64,000 nt of DNA, taken from assembly GCA_018819515.1 (NCBI GenBank), contig JAHJPX010000003.1, positions 56,588-120,587 on the forward strand, in the 5' to 3' direction. Within the stretch, counting starts at the first letter, position 1, and each line of letters opens with the position of its first letter. Below, one piece after another: positions 5,005 to 62,895 of the stretch. Source of the stretch: Gammaproteobacteria bacterium (lineage in GTDB: Bacteria; Pseudomonadota; Gammaproteobacteria; Burkholderiales; Rhodocyclaceae). The translations under genes and the position numbers were made by a program. The notes under the pieces are model-generated. The model searched no databases, had not been told where the DNA came from, and was given only the letters and a program-made list of their open reading frames with translations.

Positions 5005-7311
5005 CTATCGTTTCAGTTTGGCGAATGCACTGGCCATGGCGCCGGCTGGTTCGGCTTCGCGACGCGGTGCCGGTCTGGAATTCTGCCTGCTCGGCGTACC
5101 GCCACGGCTGACTTTTGGCTCGGACTTCGGCGTCGGCGTGTCGCCCATGCGCATCGATAGTGCGATGCGCTTGCGCGCCACGTCGACTTCCAGCACCTTC
5201 ACTTTCACCAGGTCGCCCGCCTTGACCACCGAGTGCGGGTCCTTGACGAACTTGTCGGCCAGTGCCGAGACATGGACGAGGCCGTCCTGATGCACGCCGA
5301 TGTCGATGAAGGCGCCGAAGTTGGTGACGTTGGTGACCACGCCCTCCAGCATCATGCCCGGTTCCAGGTCCTTCAGGCTCTCGATGCCTTCGCAGAAGCT
5401 GGCGGTCTTGAATTCGGGGCGCGGGTCGCGGCCAGGCTTGTCCAGTTCGCGCAGGATGTCCTGCACGGTGGGCAGGCCGAATTTCTCGTCGGTGTATTTC
5501 GCTGGATCGACCTTGCCCGGCGTACCGCCATGGCTGACTTTTGCAATGTCGGCGAGGATGCGTGCCGCGACCGGATAGGCCTCCGGGTGCACCGCCGAGG
5601 CGTCGAGCGGGTTGTCGCCGCCGACGATGCGCAGGAAGCCCGCCGCCTGCTCGAAGGTCTTGTCGCCCAGGCGCGGCACCGCTTTCAATTGTTCGCGGCT
5701 CTTGAAGGCGCCATGCTGGTCGCGGTAGGCGACGATGTTGGCGGCGAGCGTGCTGTTGAGGCCGGAGATGCGGGTCAGCAGCGGCACCGAGGCCATGTTC
5801 ACATCCACGCCCACCGAGTTCACGCAATCTTCCACCACGGCGTCGAGGCTCTTCGCCAGCTTGCCCTGGTTGAGGTCGTGCTGGTACTGGCCGACGCCGA
5901 TGCTCTTCGGGTCAATCTTCACCAGTTCGGCGAGCGGATCCTGCAGGCGGCGGGCGATGGACACCGCACCGCGCAACGACACATCGAGTTCCGGGAACTC
6001 GCGTGCCGCCAGTTCCGACGCCGAATACACCGAGGCACCGGCTTCGGAGACCATCACCTTGGTCAGCTTCAGTTCCGGATGGCGCTTCATGAGATCGGCG
6101 GCCAGCTTGTCGGTTTCACGGCTGGCGGTGCCGTTGCCGATGGCGATCAGGTCGACCTCGTGCTTTTGGCAGAGGTGGCGCAGGGCAGCCAGCGAGCCTT
6201 CCCAGTCGCGGCGCGGTTCATGCGGATACAACGTGGCCGTATCGAGCAGCTTGCCGGTGCGGTCGACCACCGCGACCTTGCAGCCGGTGCGAATACCCGG
6301 ATCGAGGCCGAGCGTGATCCGCGCGCCCGCTGGCGCGGCCAGCAGCAGGTCGTGCAGGTTGCGGGCGAAGACGCGGATCGCCTCTTCTTCGGCGCGCTCG
6401 CGCAGGCCGTTCATAAGCTCCAGCTCGAGGTGCAGCGAGAGCTTGACCAGCCAGGTCCAGCGCGCGGTTTCCAGCAGCCACTTGTCGGCGGCGCGGCCCT
6501 GATCCTTGAGGCGGAAGCGGTCGGCGACCATCGCGATGCACGGCGAGCTTTCCGGTGGATCGCGCAGTTCCTGTTCGGTCTTGATCGAGAGGCGCAGGAA
6601 ATCCTCCTGCCGGCCGCGCAACAGCGCCAGCGCGCGGTGCGAGGGAATGGTGGCGATCTTCTCGCGGAAGTCGAACCAGTCGCGGAATTTGGCGCCTTCG
6701 GTTTCCTTGCCCTCGGCCACGGTCGAGACGATCAGCGCGTTTTCGTTGAGGTAGCTGCGCATTCTTTCGAGCAGCACGGCATCTTCGGCAAAACGTTCCA
6801 TCAGGATCTGCCGCGCGCCGTCGAGCGCCGCCTTGACGTCGGGGACGTGCTTCTCGGGCGGCTCGGTCGCCGGGTTCACGTACTTCGCCGCCTCGGTTTC
6901 CGGAACCAGCGTCGGGTCGTTGAACAGCGCGTCGGCCAGTGGTTCCAGTCCGGCTTCGCGGGCGATCTGCGCCTTGGTGCGGCGCTTCGGCTTGTACGGC
7001 AGGTAAAGATCTTCGAGCAACTGCTTGGTTTCGGCGTTCTCGATGTCGTTCTTCAGTTCCGGCGTCAGCTTGCCCTGTTCCTCGATTGAAACGAGCACCG
7101 TGGCGCGCCGGTCTTCCAGTTCGCGCAGGTAACCGAATCGTTCTTCCAGCAGGCGCAACTGGGTATCGTCCAGGCTGCCGGTGACTTCCTTGCGGTAGCG
7201 GGCGATGAACGGCACCGTGGCGCCTTCGTTGAGCAACTGGACGGTAGCAAAGACCTGCTGGGGACGGACGCCGATTTCTTCGGCGATACGATGTTCTATC
7301 GGAGGCAGCAT
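5005..7311 (-). CDS. tex: Transcription accessory protein Tex (S1 RNA-binding domain)
   Basis: 768-aa ORF. N-terminus [34 protein letters not shown], YqgF-like centre and C-terminal S1 domain ([26 protein letters not shown]). Confidence 0.9.
5093..5116 (+). repeat. 24-nt motif copy, 0 mismatches
   Basis: GGCGTACCGCCACGGCTGACTTTT. Inside tex (minus-strand gene), read as KVSRGGTP in the C-terminal tail. Confidence 0.95.
5519..5542 (+). repeat. 24-nt motif copy, 1 mismatch
   Basis: GGCGTACCGCCATGGCTGACTTTT. Inside tex, read as KVSHGGTP. Confidence 0.9.
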
Positions 7312-7387
7312 GGAAATAAAGGGGTGAATCGATGCGGGGCGCGAACCTTACCTCAGCCCGAGGCGACCGACAAGGCTTGACGAATCG

Positions 7388-9286
7388 TCAATAACCCTCG
7401 CAAAAAGCCTGTACGCGGCTGAAGTCCGCGCGGGCCAAGTCTTCTTCGTGGATCATGAAATACAGCATACCGGTATCCGTTCCCCACATGAATTCGTCGT
7501 CGCTGTCGATCTGGAGCAGTAGACGCCAGCCTCGGGCTTCCCTGCCGTCGTTGGCCAACGCGGCGGCCTGCTTCGCCGGGTCGAACGATTGCAACAAAGT
7601 CGGATATCCGCCGAGGCGGTGTCCGGACGGAAGTCCTTCGGGAAAACGGCTATCGAGGAAATTCTGATATTCCGCAACCTCATTGTCGGGAAGCAGGTGT
7701 GCTTGCACGACGGCCGCATCGATGGCTGGCAGGTCGGTACGATCCTTTGCCAGGCGTATCCCTTGCGGTTTGCGGTTGGTGGCGAGGTGTCGGGCGGCTG
7801 AGGTAGCGACTTCCGGCGTCCAGAGTACGTGCGTGGCGATGGGCTCGAAGTCGTCAGTCAAGGCTTCGCCTTCGTCGTTTTCCGCGGCGTAGAACGCCAG
7901 CTGCCCATGGTCCGGCAAGCCGATGTCCGCCGCGGTAGCGGCCACTTCGGCGAGATCGATCTGACACAAGAGCGTCATCGGCTTGCCGTTGTGCTCAGGA
8001 AGCGGGGTATCCGGCGGCAGGTCGGCGTGGCCGTAGAAGTGCGACCGGCGATCGGGTTTGTATTTGCTCGGGCGCAAGGCGATGGCCGGACGTCGCCAAG
8101 TCTCCAGCAAGGCCTTGTAGACGGGCGGTTGGGTCCGCTTCGCCGCCTTGGCCGGTAGCGCGGCTTGCCATTCCAGGGATGTGGCGGGGAAGCTTTGAAC
8201 CCTGCCTTGGTTCAGGGTGACGAATCCGTCGTCCAGCGCGCAGCTTGCCGGCAGGAAACGGACTTTCACACCTGTTTCTTCCTGGTGCAGCGGCGCTTCC
8301 TCCCGGGGCATGAGGTGATCGACGAGCGAATGCGCCCGTCGGTCGATATCGATCAGCCACGTGTGTTCCCAAGCCATGGCCAGCAGGTAACGACCATTCG
8401 GTGATATCGAAAGCGCGAACTGCGAGCGATGTACCGGTGGCGTGACACGCAGGGCTGCGATGCTGGTGCAGCCATTGTCGATGACTTCGATGAGCCCACT
8501 GTGGTCCGCGGTTGCGAAACGGTCGACATTTGCCGCGGCGGCAATGCCGGCATAGCCCTTGCGGGCGTGACGCGGTTTACCTGCCAGCAGATCGCCTGAC
8601 CCTGCTAGCGGGAAGCTACGAATCTGTCCGGTTTCGCGATTGCGAAGATAAAGATGTGTCGCCGAGAAGGCAACGTCATCCCGGACAAGGTTGTCGATGT
8701 CCGGCAATGCCAGTTCCAATATGGTGCCAGTGAAGCGAAACAGCCGGAAATCGGCATGGATCGCAATCTTGGCAAACCCATTGCCCGAGGCGTACAAGAA
8801 CAGCCCGGTGTCCAGCAGGTAGTCCCGTATGTGGATGCCTAGACGCTGCATGAGGTCATCGGCCGTCTCTTCAGTCAGGACGGTGTTGGTCACAATATCG
8901 ACGACGCGCAAGAGTGCCGGACCGACATTGCCGGCAAAGACCAGTAGAGCGCGTCCCTGGCCGAGATCGCCCGCATGCTGGGGAAGCTGCACGTAGTTGG
9001 CGGTCGCTTGATCCACCTGCCAATTCAGTTTGTCGCCCGCCACGGCAGGCAGGTTAGGGTAGGTGTCGCGCATTTTGGTGATGGTGCGCGTCACGGCTTC
9101 GTGAGATAACGAACGGCTGCACAGGTCGAAGCGATCATGTTGCCGGCCATCGCCGTCGCGCCAATAGGCGTAACCGATATTGCGCGCAGGCAAGGGCAGG
9201 GCGCAGGTACCGCAAAACTCTGTGGTAAGGGCCAGAAGGCCATGTGATCCCAGATTGACGAGGTGTTCGTGAAGTGCGAATTGCAT
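7388..9286 (-). CDS. DUF1963 (YwqG-like) domain protein with long N-terminal region
   Basis: 632-aa ORF. The C-terminal third (LLCQIDL..GQLAFY...GHRLGGYP...LLLQIDSDDEFMWGTDTGMLYFMI) looks like DUF1963. The N-terminal about 400 aa was not recognised. Confidence 0.5.
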   Translation of the reverse strand: MQFALHEHLVNLGSHGLLALTTEFCGTCALPLPARNIGYAYWRDGDGRQHDRFDLCSRSLSHEAVTRTITKMRDTYPNLPAVAGDKLNWQVDQATANYVQLPQHAGDLGQGRALLVFAGNVGPALLRVVDIVTNTVLTEETADDLMQRLGIHIRDYLLDTGLFLYASGNGFAKIAIHADFRLFRFTGTILELALPDIDNLVRDDVAFSATHLYLRNRETGQIRSFPLAGSGDLLAGKPRHARKGYAGIAAAANVDRFATADHSGLIEVIDNGCTSIAALRVTPPVHRSQFALSISPNGRYLLAMAWEHTWLIDIDRRAHSLVDHLMPREEAPLHQEETGVKVRFLPASCALDDGFVTLNQGRVQSFPATSLEWQAALPAKAAKRTQPPVYKALLETWRRPAIALRPSKYKPDRRSHFYGHADLPPDTPLPEHNGKPMTLLCQIDLAEVAATAADIGLPDHGQLAFYAAENDEGEALTDDFEPIATHVLWTPEVATSAARHLATNRKPQGIRLAKDRTDLPAIDAAVVQAHLLPDNEVAEYQNFLDSRFPEGLPSGHRLGGYPTLLQSFDPAKQAAALANDGREARGWRLLLQIDSDDEFMWGTDTGMLYFMIHEEDLARADFSRVQAFCEGY

Positions 9287-62759: not shown

Positions 62760-62871
62760 GGCGAGCTCGCAATCACCCGGGTGAATGTAGTGAGGCTTTT
62801 TGACAGGGCGACCTGTTCGCCGTCGTTTTTTGATGGCACTTCGCGTTCGCCGTTGCGGTTGGTGTTGCGGG

Positions 62872-62895
62872 AAAAGTCAGCCGTGGCGGTGCGCT
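62872..62895 (-). repeat. 24-nt motif copy, inverted, 2 mismatches
   Basis: The plus strand reads AAAAGTCAGCCGTGGCGGTGCGCT. Intergenic, 3 nt beyond the MFS stop codon. Confidence 0.85.

Follow-up and report, generated by a model that had tools for sequence, protein, structure and literature searches.

The window, i.e. the whole 64,000-nt stretch of DNA analysed, carries a dispersed word of 26 nt, G-Y-GGCG-T-R-Y-CGCCAC-GGCTGACTTTT, which occurs about once per 4 kb in genes and spacers and is shared by at least 11 species-level Rhodocyclaceae MAGs close to Denitratisoma and Sulfuritalea. It is tentatively explained as a signal resembling the uptake sequences of the Neisseriaceae (DUS) and Pasteurellaceae (USS), which would be kept by biased transmission together with rare templated conversion. 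With similar caution, the copies may be regarded as maintained by molecular drive, possibly together with selection, and not by a benefit to the host gene.

The massive over-representation of a 24-nt word noted in the preliminary description proved correct. In the window GGCGTACCGCCACGGCTGACTTTT is matched 15 times at up to three mismatches with none expected, no match being present in any of 100 dinucleotide-preserving shuffles, and it is the sole over-represented long word. Including relics the window contains 18-19 copies (see table). The coordinates given previously hold apart from small shifts (47260 to 47259, 21067 to 21063-21086); one copy with three mismatches on the minus strand, at 15942, had been missed. 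The relics at 16799, 17733 and 32656 are genuine partial copies, and that at 48571 retains only GGCTGACTTTCC. The hosts were correctly assigned (tex twice, dadA, EamA, dnaE2 three times, rnfE, rnfG, nifA and nifB); imuA and imuB, with partial copies, are further hosts.

Copies of the word and associated features in the window
Feature	Position	Strand	Remark
Perfect copy, tex C-terminal tail	5093..5116	+	antisense, read KVSRGGTP
1-mismatch copy, tex linker	5519..5542	+	antisense, read KVSHGGTP
Perfect copy, dadA 3' end	11036..11059	+	TGA is the dadA stop codon; the convergent DUF2863 gene has its TAA stop in the final two T's plus the following A
1-mismatch copy, EamA transporter central loop	14468..14491	+	sense, RPATADF
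3-mismatch copy at azlD stop codon, 2-nt overlap	15942..15965	-	upstream of the lexA SOS box
Partial copy in imuA, GGCG...CTGACTTTT	16799..16822	+	
Partial copy in imuB, 5 mismatches	17733..17756	+	
2-mismatch copy in dnaE2	18878..18901	+	
Inverted copy in dnaE2, T-tract lost	21063..21086	-	
3-mismatch copy in dnaE2	21380..21403	+	RRYATADFL
Relic at gene junction, 5 mismatches	32656..32679	+	TGA closes one ORF; ATG in the altered centre can open the next
Perfect copy, 17 nt ahead of rnfE stop	39047..39070	-	sense, RTATADF
2-mismatch copy in rnfG	40088..40111	+	antisense, KVSRGDTP
2-mismatch copy, nifA interdomain linker	47259..47282	+	sense, GVSPRLTF
Perfect copy, nifB linker	51865..51888	+	sense, RTATADF
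2-mismatch copy, 8 nt past draG-like (ADP-ribosylglycohydrolase) stop	55970..55993	+	left of direct pair
Low-GC segment, 575 bp, between two direct copies	55994..56568	+	
1-mismatch copy	56569..56592	+	right of direct pair
2-mismatch intergenic copy	57176..57199	+	within a segment rearranged relative to L040
2-mismatch copy, 3 nt past MFS transporter stop	62872..62895	-	

The flanks of the copies are unrelated as previously claimed (about 5.5 of 20 positions match between non-orthologous copies, which is the null level), the edges of the word are abrupt and about 21 positions are near-invariant. The true left edge of the proposed 24-nt unit lies 2 nt further out (G-Y), and this extension results in a 6-bp stem, GTGGCG/CGCCAC. 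Mismatches among the copies concentrate in the loop. Since positions 5-7 hold 17 of the 35 mismatches (p = 2e-7), the bipartite appearance described before is real.

The word has two or three length variants with conserved internal modules. A long form of 50 nt, in which a conserved 24-nt module sits in the variable loop, recurs at at least five sites; it was seen at the tex 5519 site in L156, at the dadA site in L157 and at the EamA site in L156, L157 and L159, the EamA site being occupied by the short form in L006 and L158. In L158 and L159 the tex 5519 site is without the word and 18 nt shorter. At one orthologous site short and long forms switched at least three times, which calls for copying from a template, a step not supplied by simple uptake bias, and identical 24-nt modules cannot be reached by uptake bias alone. 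The 24-bp insertion would push the half-sites of a double-stranded binding site apart, except if reading involves the right arm alone. The same basal hairpin and a conserved 3' tail are common to the two forms, and the shared hairpin hints that a folded single strand is what is recognised. These features would suit a self-propagating, enzyme-templated hairpin element, either REP/REPIN-like or a HUH/recombinase-serviced repeat, in which a single-copy host or domesticated enzyme, acting on single-stranded DNA, would recognise the stem together with the GGCTGACTTTT tail and copy or convert elements between sites; its length of 24 or 48 nt, a multiple of three, would allow it to survive inside genes. 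Length variants with conserved internal modules occur in modular repeat families, and the sharp edges with unrelated flanks, the proximity of copies of both orientations to the 3' ends of genes and the accessory cassettes bracketed by copies also agree with such an element, as does the lineage-dependent maintenance or decay, comparable to REPIN-RAYT systems as described in PMC3116915 and bioRxiv 10.1101/2021.07.10.451892. Like RAYT-serviced REPs and REPINs, the word is a short, hairpin-forming, lineage-specific repeat that is vertically inherited with apparent decay in some lineages, and, by extrapolation from the window density and not by count, a genome a few Mb in size would contain hundreds of copies.

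This element is an unlikely, if serious, candidate. At four sites (dnaE2 18878 and 21380, imuB 17733, imuA 16799) the word overwrote older sequence without a change in length, a difference from REPs and REPINs. In dnaE2, RRRAEKG[AS]Y became RRRAAKADF at 18878, and at 21380 all mismatches lie in the loop, where a conserved Tyr codon is retained. The conserved RRLP[RQ]A of ImuB turned into RRLTFA (the partial copy is also present in L156) and SLL[LM]PAL of ImuA into SLLTFAL, at the cost of conserved Leu/Met-Pro. Insertion of an element cannot yield these four partial copies shaped by protein constraint. Other copies lie, in its favour, within small in-frame insertions (tex site 1, the EamA loop and dnaE2 21063, the last within a 13-codon insertion found in this genome alone). 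An origin from a mobile element with target-site duplications, which had been considered beforehand, was not borne out, the copies having overwritten older sequence. The same was reported for DUS, where new copies are too divergent for point mutation, lie in permissive regions and are nonetheless highly conserved (Treangen et al., PMC2397512).

Furthermore, doublets are rare, and unlike REPINs the word has neither a doublet organisation nor a GTAG-type 5' tetranucleotide. Its stem comprises only 6-7 bp, the breaks of which are not compensated, and a stem-breaking dialect exists in a whole lineage. IS200/IS605-type transposition is linked to the lagging-strand template, whereas the word shows no replication-strand bias. 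By definition REPs lie outside genes (in SBW25 14 of 1,067, about 1%, overlap a gene; PMC3116915), whereas 13 of the 18 window copies and 59 of the 126 over all loci, i.e. 47-72%, are located in coding DNA; on this defining property a REP-like element fails. In 614 kb of clade DNA, a weak test, neither a Y1-transposase-like ORF nor a RAYT-like gene was found.

Between species the copies are 91-93% identical and their flanks 81%, most of the within-clade pairs having been ascertained via the word itself; in the unbiased within-clade comparisons four sites were retained and two were absent. L156-L159 and L161 carry the word at the tex 5093 site, the nifA copy is identical to L056 at 21 of 24 positions within a poorly conserved linker, and the position of the 15942 copy is without the word in L006. 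L157 employs a dialect with GCCG in 4 of 5 copies, orthologous sites included, while the right arms are decaying in L156 and only a relic is left in L160. Compensation of stem breaks was never seen among the copies compared, and the constraint is on sequence, not on hairpin structure.

Such a constraint also suits binding sites of an abundant sequence-specific DNA-binding protein with a nucleoid-organising or self-marking role (e.g. nuclease protection), for which selection would act on the genome-wide site density and not on uptake. The irrelevance of orientation, the bipartite motif with its tolerated centre, the lineage dialect, which fits co-evolution with a protein, the decay in some lineages and the absence from phage and plasmid DNA point in the same direction. 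Nevertheless, without transmission bias a weak selection at each site would probably not outweigh the conserved residues lost from ImuA and ImuB, the 24-nt module shifts the half-sites apart on duplex DNA, and the copies are unevenly spaced, with one 17-kb gap within the window. A nucleoid or self-marking system with a non-palindromic site of about 24 nt at about one per 4 kb is not known to us, and this explanation appears quite unlikely.

Both strands are used without bias by replication or transcription: 27 coding copies are sense and 32 antisense, and copies adjoining gene 3' ends have the same orientation in 25 cases and the opposite in 24. Coding copies occupy permissive linkers and tails; for published uptake sequences a share of 35-65% in ORFs was given (PMC2817400). 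Intergenic copies avoid divergent promoter regions, and 28 of 49 lie within 12 nt of a stop codon. Of 15 copies in the window the plus strand, with its positive GC skew, carries 12, as would suit a polar chromosome signal of the Chi or KOPS type, one of the alternatives proposed earlier. This alternative was rejected by the lack of polarity across the clade (59:44 by raw skew, 38:48 with the window excluded, 49:52 by codon-bias-corrected skew). Like Chi and KOPS, the word is over-represented in the chromosome at kb-scale spacing; unlike these 8-mers, which are strongly skewed to one replication strand, it comprises 26 nt and is not polar, so that identity with them fails on their defining property. 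An assembly or adapter artefact is excluded, because separately produced assemblies of many projects contain the word, in frame within genes and at orthologous positions. Polar signal and artefact together thus retain next to no probability.

The 575-bp segment between the two direct copies contains a single small ORF (about 56105-56515) of unknown family and is missing from the orthologous L040, which has a single copy. Inverted pairs flank a PIN/MazE-type toxin-antitoxin pair and a small secreted-protein gene. In a syntenic five-genome region a copy was found at 3 of 4 variable-content junctions vs 0-1 of 14 invariant ones, as compiled by hand from gene tables and the copy list. Together with the indels abutting the 3' end of the word, this would suit an att-like site-specific or short-homology recombination site for insertion, exchange and deletion of small cassettes. 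It seems very improbable all the same: most copies lie inside conserved core genes, which contain no inserted cassette and could not accommodate one, they arose by overwriting of coding sequence, direct and inverted pairs both occur, and the copies neither form arrays nor have an integrase nearby. Deletion between 24-nt direct repeats explains L040 without a dedicated system, and the junction association is confounded, since indels and copies both avoid operon interiors.

The word had been proposed to be species-specific, which is wrong since at least 11 species carry it. Confinement to the window, which would have spoken against a genome-wide signal, was not found; the word is shared across the clade and also present in genomes beyond those 11. 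The carriers are uncultured MAGs. In 1.11 Mb of outgroup loci the word was not found except for a shared dnaE2 site, and it was detected neither in 2.9 M viral contigs nor in plasmid and phage records. Type IV pilin genes in the clade loci and one recombination tract separating two strains provide prerequisites for an uptake signal.

All computational signatures of an uptake signal that could be tested were observed. As in DUS and USS (PMC2817400, PMC2397512, PMC3630211), a lineage word is over-represented by orders of magnitude, shared by related species with dialects, used in both orientations and located to a large share in genes at permissive, poorly conserved positions in tolerated frames; it is enriched directly after genes, outlasts its surroundings, arises as multi-base patches overwriting older sequence instead of by single point mutations and is missing from foreign DNA. 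Besides the species-specificity, the motif length and the previously unnoticed 50-nt form stand against the original proposal. Unlike DUS and USS, with a core of 9-12 nt and a density of about one per 1 kb, the word measures 24-26 nt; with about 21 near-invariant positions it is far longer and richer in information than any known uptake signal. It is also about four times less dense, contains a small hairpin and exists in a second, 50-nt version that encloses a conserved module. Inverted pairs resembling terminators, which are frequent in DUS and USS, are seldom encountered here, with 2 such pairs in some 126 copies. Rickettsia palindromic elements are insertions of about 100-150 bp that form in-frame repeats inside protein genes. 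Like these, the word is dispersed in frame in unrelated conserved genes, contributing a peptide segment at permissive positions; unlike these, it has 24 or 48 nt, uses at least five frames across the two strands and in many cases takes the place of sequence instead of adding to it.

As an uptake signal the word would be read as a double-stranded mark of "self" DNA. A cell component, most plausibly the type IV pilus/competence uptake machinery, would prefer DNA with GGCGT...CGCCACGGCTGACTTTT, and better-matching fragments would enter other cells and recombine there with greater frequency, so that good-copy alleles would displace poor-copy alleles in the population. New copies and changes of form would begin as rare multi-base events, i.e. 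short patches of templated conversion or recombination as well as small insertions in frame, which transmission bias would then spread. The uptake machinery would be the reader of the word, and conversion patches are the putative source of new copies. For the Rhodocyclaceae no uptake signal has been reported (bioRxiv 10.1101/2025.10.24.684340). Signals for the uptake of self DNA have so far been reported only from relatives of Neisseria and Haemophilus, and the bacteria carrying the present word may be transformable.

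In the 64-kb window the 24-mer GGCGTACCGCCACGGCTGACTTTT was matched 15 times with up to three mismatches, compared with an expectation of 0 and with 0 matches in 100 dinucleotide-preserving shuffles of the window, so that the extreme over-representation claimed in the preliminary description was borne out. The coordinates of the copies given there were right except for an off-by-one (47259, not 47260), and a minus-strand copy at 15942 had been overlooked. Relaxing the limit to five mismatches raises the number in the window to 18, among them the relics at 17733 and 32656 and an inverted copy at 21063 without the T-tract. 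The most frequent 12-mers of the window all derive from the word. Based on a position matrix of 146 copies the unit comprises 26 nt, G-Y-GGCG-T-R-Y-CGCCAC-GGCTGACTTTT, with about 21 near-invariant positions, while the loop positions 5-7 hold 17 of 35 mismatches (p = 2e-7). The edges are sharp, information having fallen to background level by -3 and +25, and the unit thus spans -2 to +24. Since the flanks of non-orthologous copies match each other at the level of the null, nothing larger than the word is repeated, as had been proposed. A MITE or IS fragment, which would show terminal inverted repeats, a target-site duplication and similarity reaching into the flanks, is ruled out by the same edges and flanks. 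In five additional loci, which were obtained independently of the word, there is about one copy per 3-7 kb. The copy-free stretch at 22-39 kb of the window has an ordinary gene content and, according to a rough estimate, is not unusual at this density. The word is a real and strong signal that occurs clade-wide.

Scanning a set with a single genome for each species, we detected at least 74 loci with the bipartite pattern which, among the matches listed, belong to MAGs of Rhodocyclaceae, Rhodocyclales or “Burkholderiales” representing at least 11 species. Also among the listed matches are two very short contigs, both from one and the same study, which are filed in an Anaerolineae and a Sideroxydans bin and which we take to be mis-binned. 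The MAG from which the window derives is “Rhodocyclaceae_Fen_999_2” from a fen, and its nearest cultured relatives according to the Tex identity are Denitratisoma (80%) and Georgfuchsia, Sterolibacterium and Sulfuritalea (78-79%). The core of the word was not found in 1.11 Mb around the DnaE2 genes of other Betaproteobacteria, apart from one dnaE2 site shared by the two closest. No match was obtained in 2.9 million viral contigs or in plasmid and phage collections, in which the phages of this host may be unsampled, and a small sample of three low-GC cassettes has no internal copy. The word cannot be an assembly or adapter artefact, since numerous assemblies made independently of each other contain it, in frame and at orthologous positions. 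A known RNA family is likewise ruled out, as no family of the Rfam covariance models reached its gathering score in the window and the copies have no sense-strand bias. We found no paper containing the word or reporting uptake sequences in Rhodocyclales. Two outgroup Betaproteobacteria were seen to carry other dispersed words (see table), and in this region of the tree it may be common for a lineage to have a word of its own.

A gene caller based on codon usage placed 59 of 126 copies in coding and 67 in intergenic DNA, in sequence that is 88% coding; in the window, which was chosen without regard to the word, 13/18 copies lie inside genes. The coding copies are read in sense (27) and antisense (32) and make use of every open frame, the most-used frames being those with good codons (RTATADF, KVSRGGT, KSAVAVR). 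In one sense frame the TGA of the word serves as stop codon, as observed in five cases including dadA. Within the host proteins the copies occupy variable linkers and tails. The intergenic copies mainly adjoin the 3' ends of genes in both orientations (25:24), with a stop codon no more than 12 nt away in 28 of the 49 that have an adjacent 3' end, and they are rare between divergent gene pairs.

Coordinates and placement of word copies and associated features (positions in the window, or in the locus named in the first column)
Feature	Position	Remarks
Junction of dadA and DUF2863 gene	11052-11060	dadA (TGA) and the convergent DUF2863 gene (TAA) both terminate within one copy, 3 nt separating the stops; extra genes inserted in the relatives L157 and L161
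LexA-type SOS box, CTGT-N8-ACAG	15993-16008	Upstream of the mutagenesis cassette
lexA - imuA - imuB - dnaE2 mutagenesis cassette	16029-21705	Five copies or partial copies
Partial copy	16799	Further to the 18 window copies at up to five mismatches
Tex, two copies		Permissive positions, judged against the P. aeruginosa structure
NifA and NifB		Copies in linkers
EamA transporter		Copy in central loop
RnfE		Copy in tail
Nitrogen-fixation neighbourhood	30745-55962	nifV-like homocitrate synthase, rnf, nifA, nifB, draG-like ADP-ribosylglycohydrolase; copies in rnfE, rnfG, nifA, nifB
Two copies as direct repeats	55970, 56569	Flank the low-GC insert
Low-GC insert, 575 bp	55994-56568	One 136-aa ORF (~56105-56515); between draG-like and lipoprotein-like genes
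Inverted pair, locus L073	4763-5593	Around low-GC genes of a PIN toxin and a MazE/PrlF-type antitoxin
Inverted pair, locus L045	3440-4177	Around a low-GC small secreted-protein gene
Insertion in dnaE2, locus L076	~1419-1487	23 codons, immediately 3' of ...GGCTGAC of the orthologous copy
Third variant, locus L159	~13350-13405	Other loop module, GGCGTAC-CCCATGCGGGGCATTCCATAT-CGCCAGGGCTGACTTT; spacer between SBP gene and arsC
Own word of outgroup L098	2057+, 8392+/8386-, 9746+, 12445+/12439-, 20360+	T-run + N3 + GGTCGACCGCAACAG; density similar to that of the Rhodocyclaceae word
Own word of outgroup L153	2818-, 4921-, 4954-, 5008+	GAAAAGTCGTCTCTGACCCTAYTTTC; similar density; AAAAGTC in common with the reverse complement of the Rhodocyclaceae word

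The 12:3 strand ratio of the copies in the window might suggest a polar signal of the Chi or KOPS kind, an alternative also considered in the preliminary description. Over about 100 copies of the clade loci the raw GC skew, used as replication proxy, gave a ratio of 59:44. In the window genes the third-codon-position GC skew tracks the gene orientation (C3 > G3 on the sense strand, mean -0.14) and therefore needs correction before it can serve as a proxy for the replication strand in this genome. The skew corrected for codon bias yielded 49:52 overall and 38:48 without the window, the corrected estimator being positive in 7/8 window blocks. As no clade-wide polarity is left after correction, the ratio in the window represents a local fluctuation, and a polar chromosome signal is ruled out by the lack of strand bias with either skew.

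The origin of the copies was traced with a series of metagenomic DnaE2 loci at graded distances. At dnaE2 18878 the ancestral peptide RRRAEKG(A/S)Y was turned into RRRAAKADF, with about 13 bases altered in a stretch of 27 nt and the length unchanged; this copy is also present in the 86% and 82% relatives and has decayed differently in each of them. At dnaE2 21380 RRYATADFL likewise overwrote an older sequence, the three apparent mismatches of the copy being a conserved Tyr codon. The conserved RRLP(R/Q)A of ImuB became RRLTFA (17733) and the conserved SLL(L/M)PAL of ImuA became SLLTFAL (16799), and in both genes the change from CTG/ATG-CCG to ACT-TTT made CTGACTTTT at the correct spacing from an existing GGCG. 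Thus, of substitution and 24-nt insertion, the two routes initially envisaged, overwriting applies to these four sites, whereas others involve small in-frame insertions: the copy at 21063 in dnaE2 lies within a 13-codon in-frame insertion found only in this genome, the first tex site has 18 additional bases compared with the relatives L158 and L159, and the EamA loop has 2-5 additional codons compared with outgroups. In EamA, furthermore, a 9-nt indel that distinguishes the window from the relative L006 directly adjoins the word on its 3' side. The multi-base origin of new copies resembles that of neisserial DUS. According to Treangen et al. (PMC2397512), new DUS copies differ too much from the homologous sequence to be explained by point mutation and 'arise by recombination'; although highly conserved, they lie in permissive regions.

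Orthologous copies of different species are 91-93% identical and the 100 nt on each side 81%, in a comparison for which most pairs were ascertained through the word itself. In unbiased comparisons the copy was retained at four sites (nifA, two in dnaE2, and one between the loci L009 and L033) and absent at two (21063 and 15942). Through Tex we retrieved five syntenic loci, a set that is hence unbiased. Their pairwise distances are similar, at 78-81% nucleotide identity (L158 and L159 86%), and the sites in the EamA loop, at the end of dadA, in the tex tail and in imuB are filled in most of them. The right arms are near-perfect in the window genome and in the relative L157, while the relative L156 has two or more mismatches in 4/6 right arms. 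In L157 GCCG replaces GGCG in 4/5 copies, including both tex sites, without a compensating change in CGCC. Stem-breaking changes (G.G 13, C.A 10, G.T 8) are in fact never compensated, which argues for a constraint on the sequence and not on a hairpin, and this constraint acts jointly on all copies of a lineage. That the copies are sites for an abundant DNA-binding protein is possible. In L160, a 79% Tex relative, we found a lone 18/24 relic and no other copy in 22 kb; Denitratisoma and Georgfuchsia are also counted among the relic-only genomes. A sister-lineage dialect, proposed from the peptide KVGAGGTA in Tex tails, is ruled out by this DNA, which represents a relic.

Tex homologues furthermore revealed a recurrent peptide, KVSRG-V(S/T)GGNPRG-STP, which is encoded by a long form of the word with 48-50 nt, GGCGTACT + CCCACGGGGATTCCCTCCGGTCAC + (G/A)CCACGGCTGACTTTT, in which a conserved 24-nt module is placed exactly at the variable loop. 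The long form was seen seven times: in L071, in EamA of L156, L157 and L159, at the dadA end of L157, at the first tex site of L156 and in the tex tail of L159. Both forms are predicted to fold on one basal stem of 6-7 bp. The short form stands at the EamA position in three genomes, those of the window, L158 and L006. Taking into account that L158 and L159 are sisters and that the relationships are star-like, at least three independent switches between short and long form took place at this site. A slippage from the long to the short form at the CCACGG direct repeats is ruled out, as judged by eye, since it would yield GGCGTACTCCCACGG and not the observed GGCGTACCGCCACGG. At five or more sites an identical 24-nt module was acquired independently, and the conversion tracts stop right at the boundary of the word. 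As such identity is impossible by convergent point mutation, templated copying between copies must occur, and this is the main feature that a simple uptake-signal picture fails to predict.

The independent identical modules, the repeated EamA switches, the tract ends at the word edge and the shared stem may indicate a dedicated templated 'sequence-writing', in which an enzyme or a free nucleic-acid template would copy the 24/48-nt hairpin-plus-tail unit over partly similar DNA, coding DNA included. We consider this rather unlikely; if true, the word would represent a new class of intragenic, in-frame, concertedly evolving bacterial element capable of rewriting coding DNA.

A REP/REPIN element serviced by a RAYT would account for the hairpin, for the variation in length and for the lineage-dependent maintenance. 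Such elements are extragenic by definition, about 1% overlapping genes (14/1,067 in SBW25; PMC3116915), whereas 47-72% of the word copies are coding, which places the word outside this definition. They furthermore cannot yield overwriting without a change of length, and inverted doublets are not over-represented (close inverted pairs in the loci L062 and L037 only, among about 126 copies). As to the hairpin, the stem is predicted, yet its breaks, which affect 4/5 copies of L157, stay uncompensated. No Y1-transposase/RAYT-like ORF was detected in 614 kb of clade DNA, a weak test as it relied on approximate probes and on incomplete genomes.

Some copies lie beside variable DNA (see table). The 136-aa ORF of the insert between the two direct repeats had no Pfam match, and the orthologous locus L040 has one copy and no insert. 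In a syntenic region of five genomes, hand-compiled from gene tables, a copy was present at 3/4 junctions of variable content vs 0-1/14 invariant ones, an association that is confounded because copies and indels both avoid operon interiors. These arrangements would be explained without a dedicated system if the segment between adjacent direct copies was deleted or if the word served as short homology.

The DUS of Neisseriaceae and the USS of Pasteurellaceae (PMC2817400, PMC2397512, PMC3630211) share the signatures of the word: they are clade-specific, non-polar, enriched at gene ends and located at permissive coding sites (35-65% in ORFs; PMC2817400), their copies are better conserved than the flanks and originate as multi-base patches, and they form dialects. 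They are also rare or absent in phages and recently acquired DNA, with which the lack of matches to the word in the viral, plasmid and phage sequences may agree. Taken together, the clade-specificity, the lack of polarity, the permissive sites, the gene-end enrichment, the conservation, the patch origin, the dialect and decay, and the apparent absence from foreign DNA point to a DUS/USS-like uptake signal kept by transmission bias and rare templated conversion. We put this reading forward tentatively, its chances appearing somewhat short of even. Biased transmission would spread the copies in a DUS/USS-like manner, and rare templated conversion would, before this bias, supply new copies and form switches. 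The word also differs from DUS and USS, which have a receptor-matched core of 9-12 nt compared with about 21 near-invariant positions over 26 nt in the word, which also has a 50-nt form; its density is fourfold lower and, unlike in DUS/USS, terminator-like inverted pairs are rare. These differences count against the uptake reading, and the strongest objection comes from the long form and the conserved hairpin at its base.

Comparing the window with L155, which belongs to the same species (99.8% identical), we detected two SNPs in the first 16.5 kb and 38 differences in the 670 bp at 16549-17218. This stretch, which includes the partial imuA copy, looks like an imported homologous-recombination tract, with the caveat that it lies at the contig end of L155 and might reflect a strain-mixture assembly. 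The type IV pilin genes in the clade loci are generic ones only. The prerequisites of uptake, namely the recombination tract and the type IV pilin genes, are plausible but weakly supported. Judged from the sequence features, the word is best filed with the uptake sequences, with REP-like structural traits and a putative function.

As of October 2025 uptake-type self words had been reported from two bacterial families only (bioRxiv 10.1101/2025.10.24.684340). Were the word a third such case, independent of the other two, it would show that signals of this type are not peculiar to host-associated pathogens; its hosts are free-living, nitrogen-fixing, uncultured Rhodocyclaceae of fens, groundwater and wastewater. 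The word also bears on a long-standing question, namely whether signals of this type come into being and multiply through point mutation or through recombination patches, and it provides a sharp marker to bin and track the clade in metagenomes as well as a ready test sequence for transforming future isolates. The 26-nt motif, its 50-nt form, the dialects and the decaying lineages together constitute a natural system for comparative work, in which the reader of the word may be sought as a gene that tracks maintenance vs decay.
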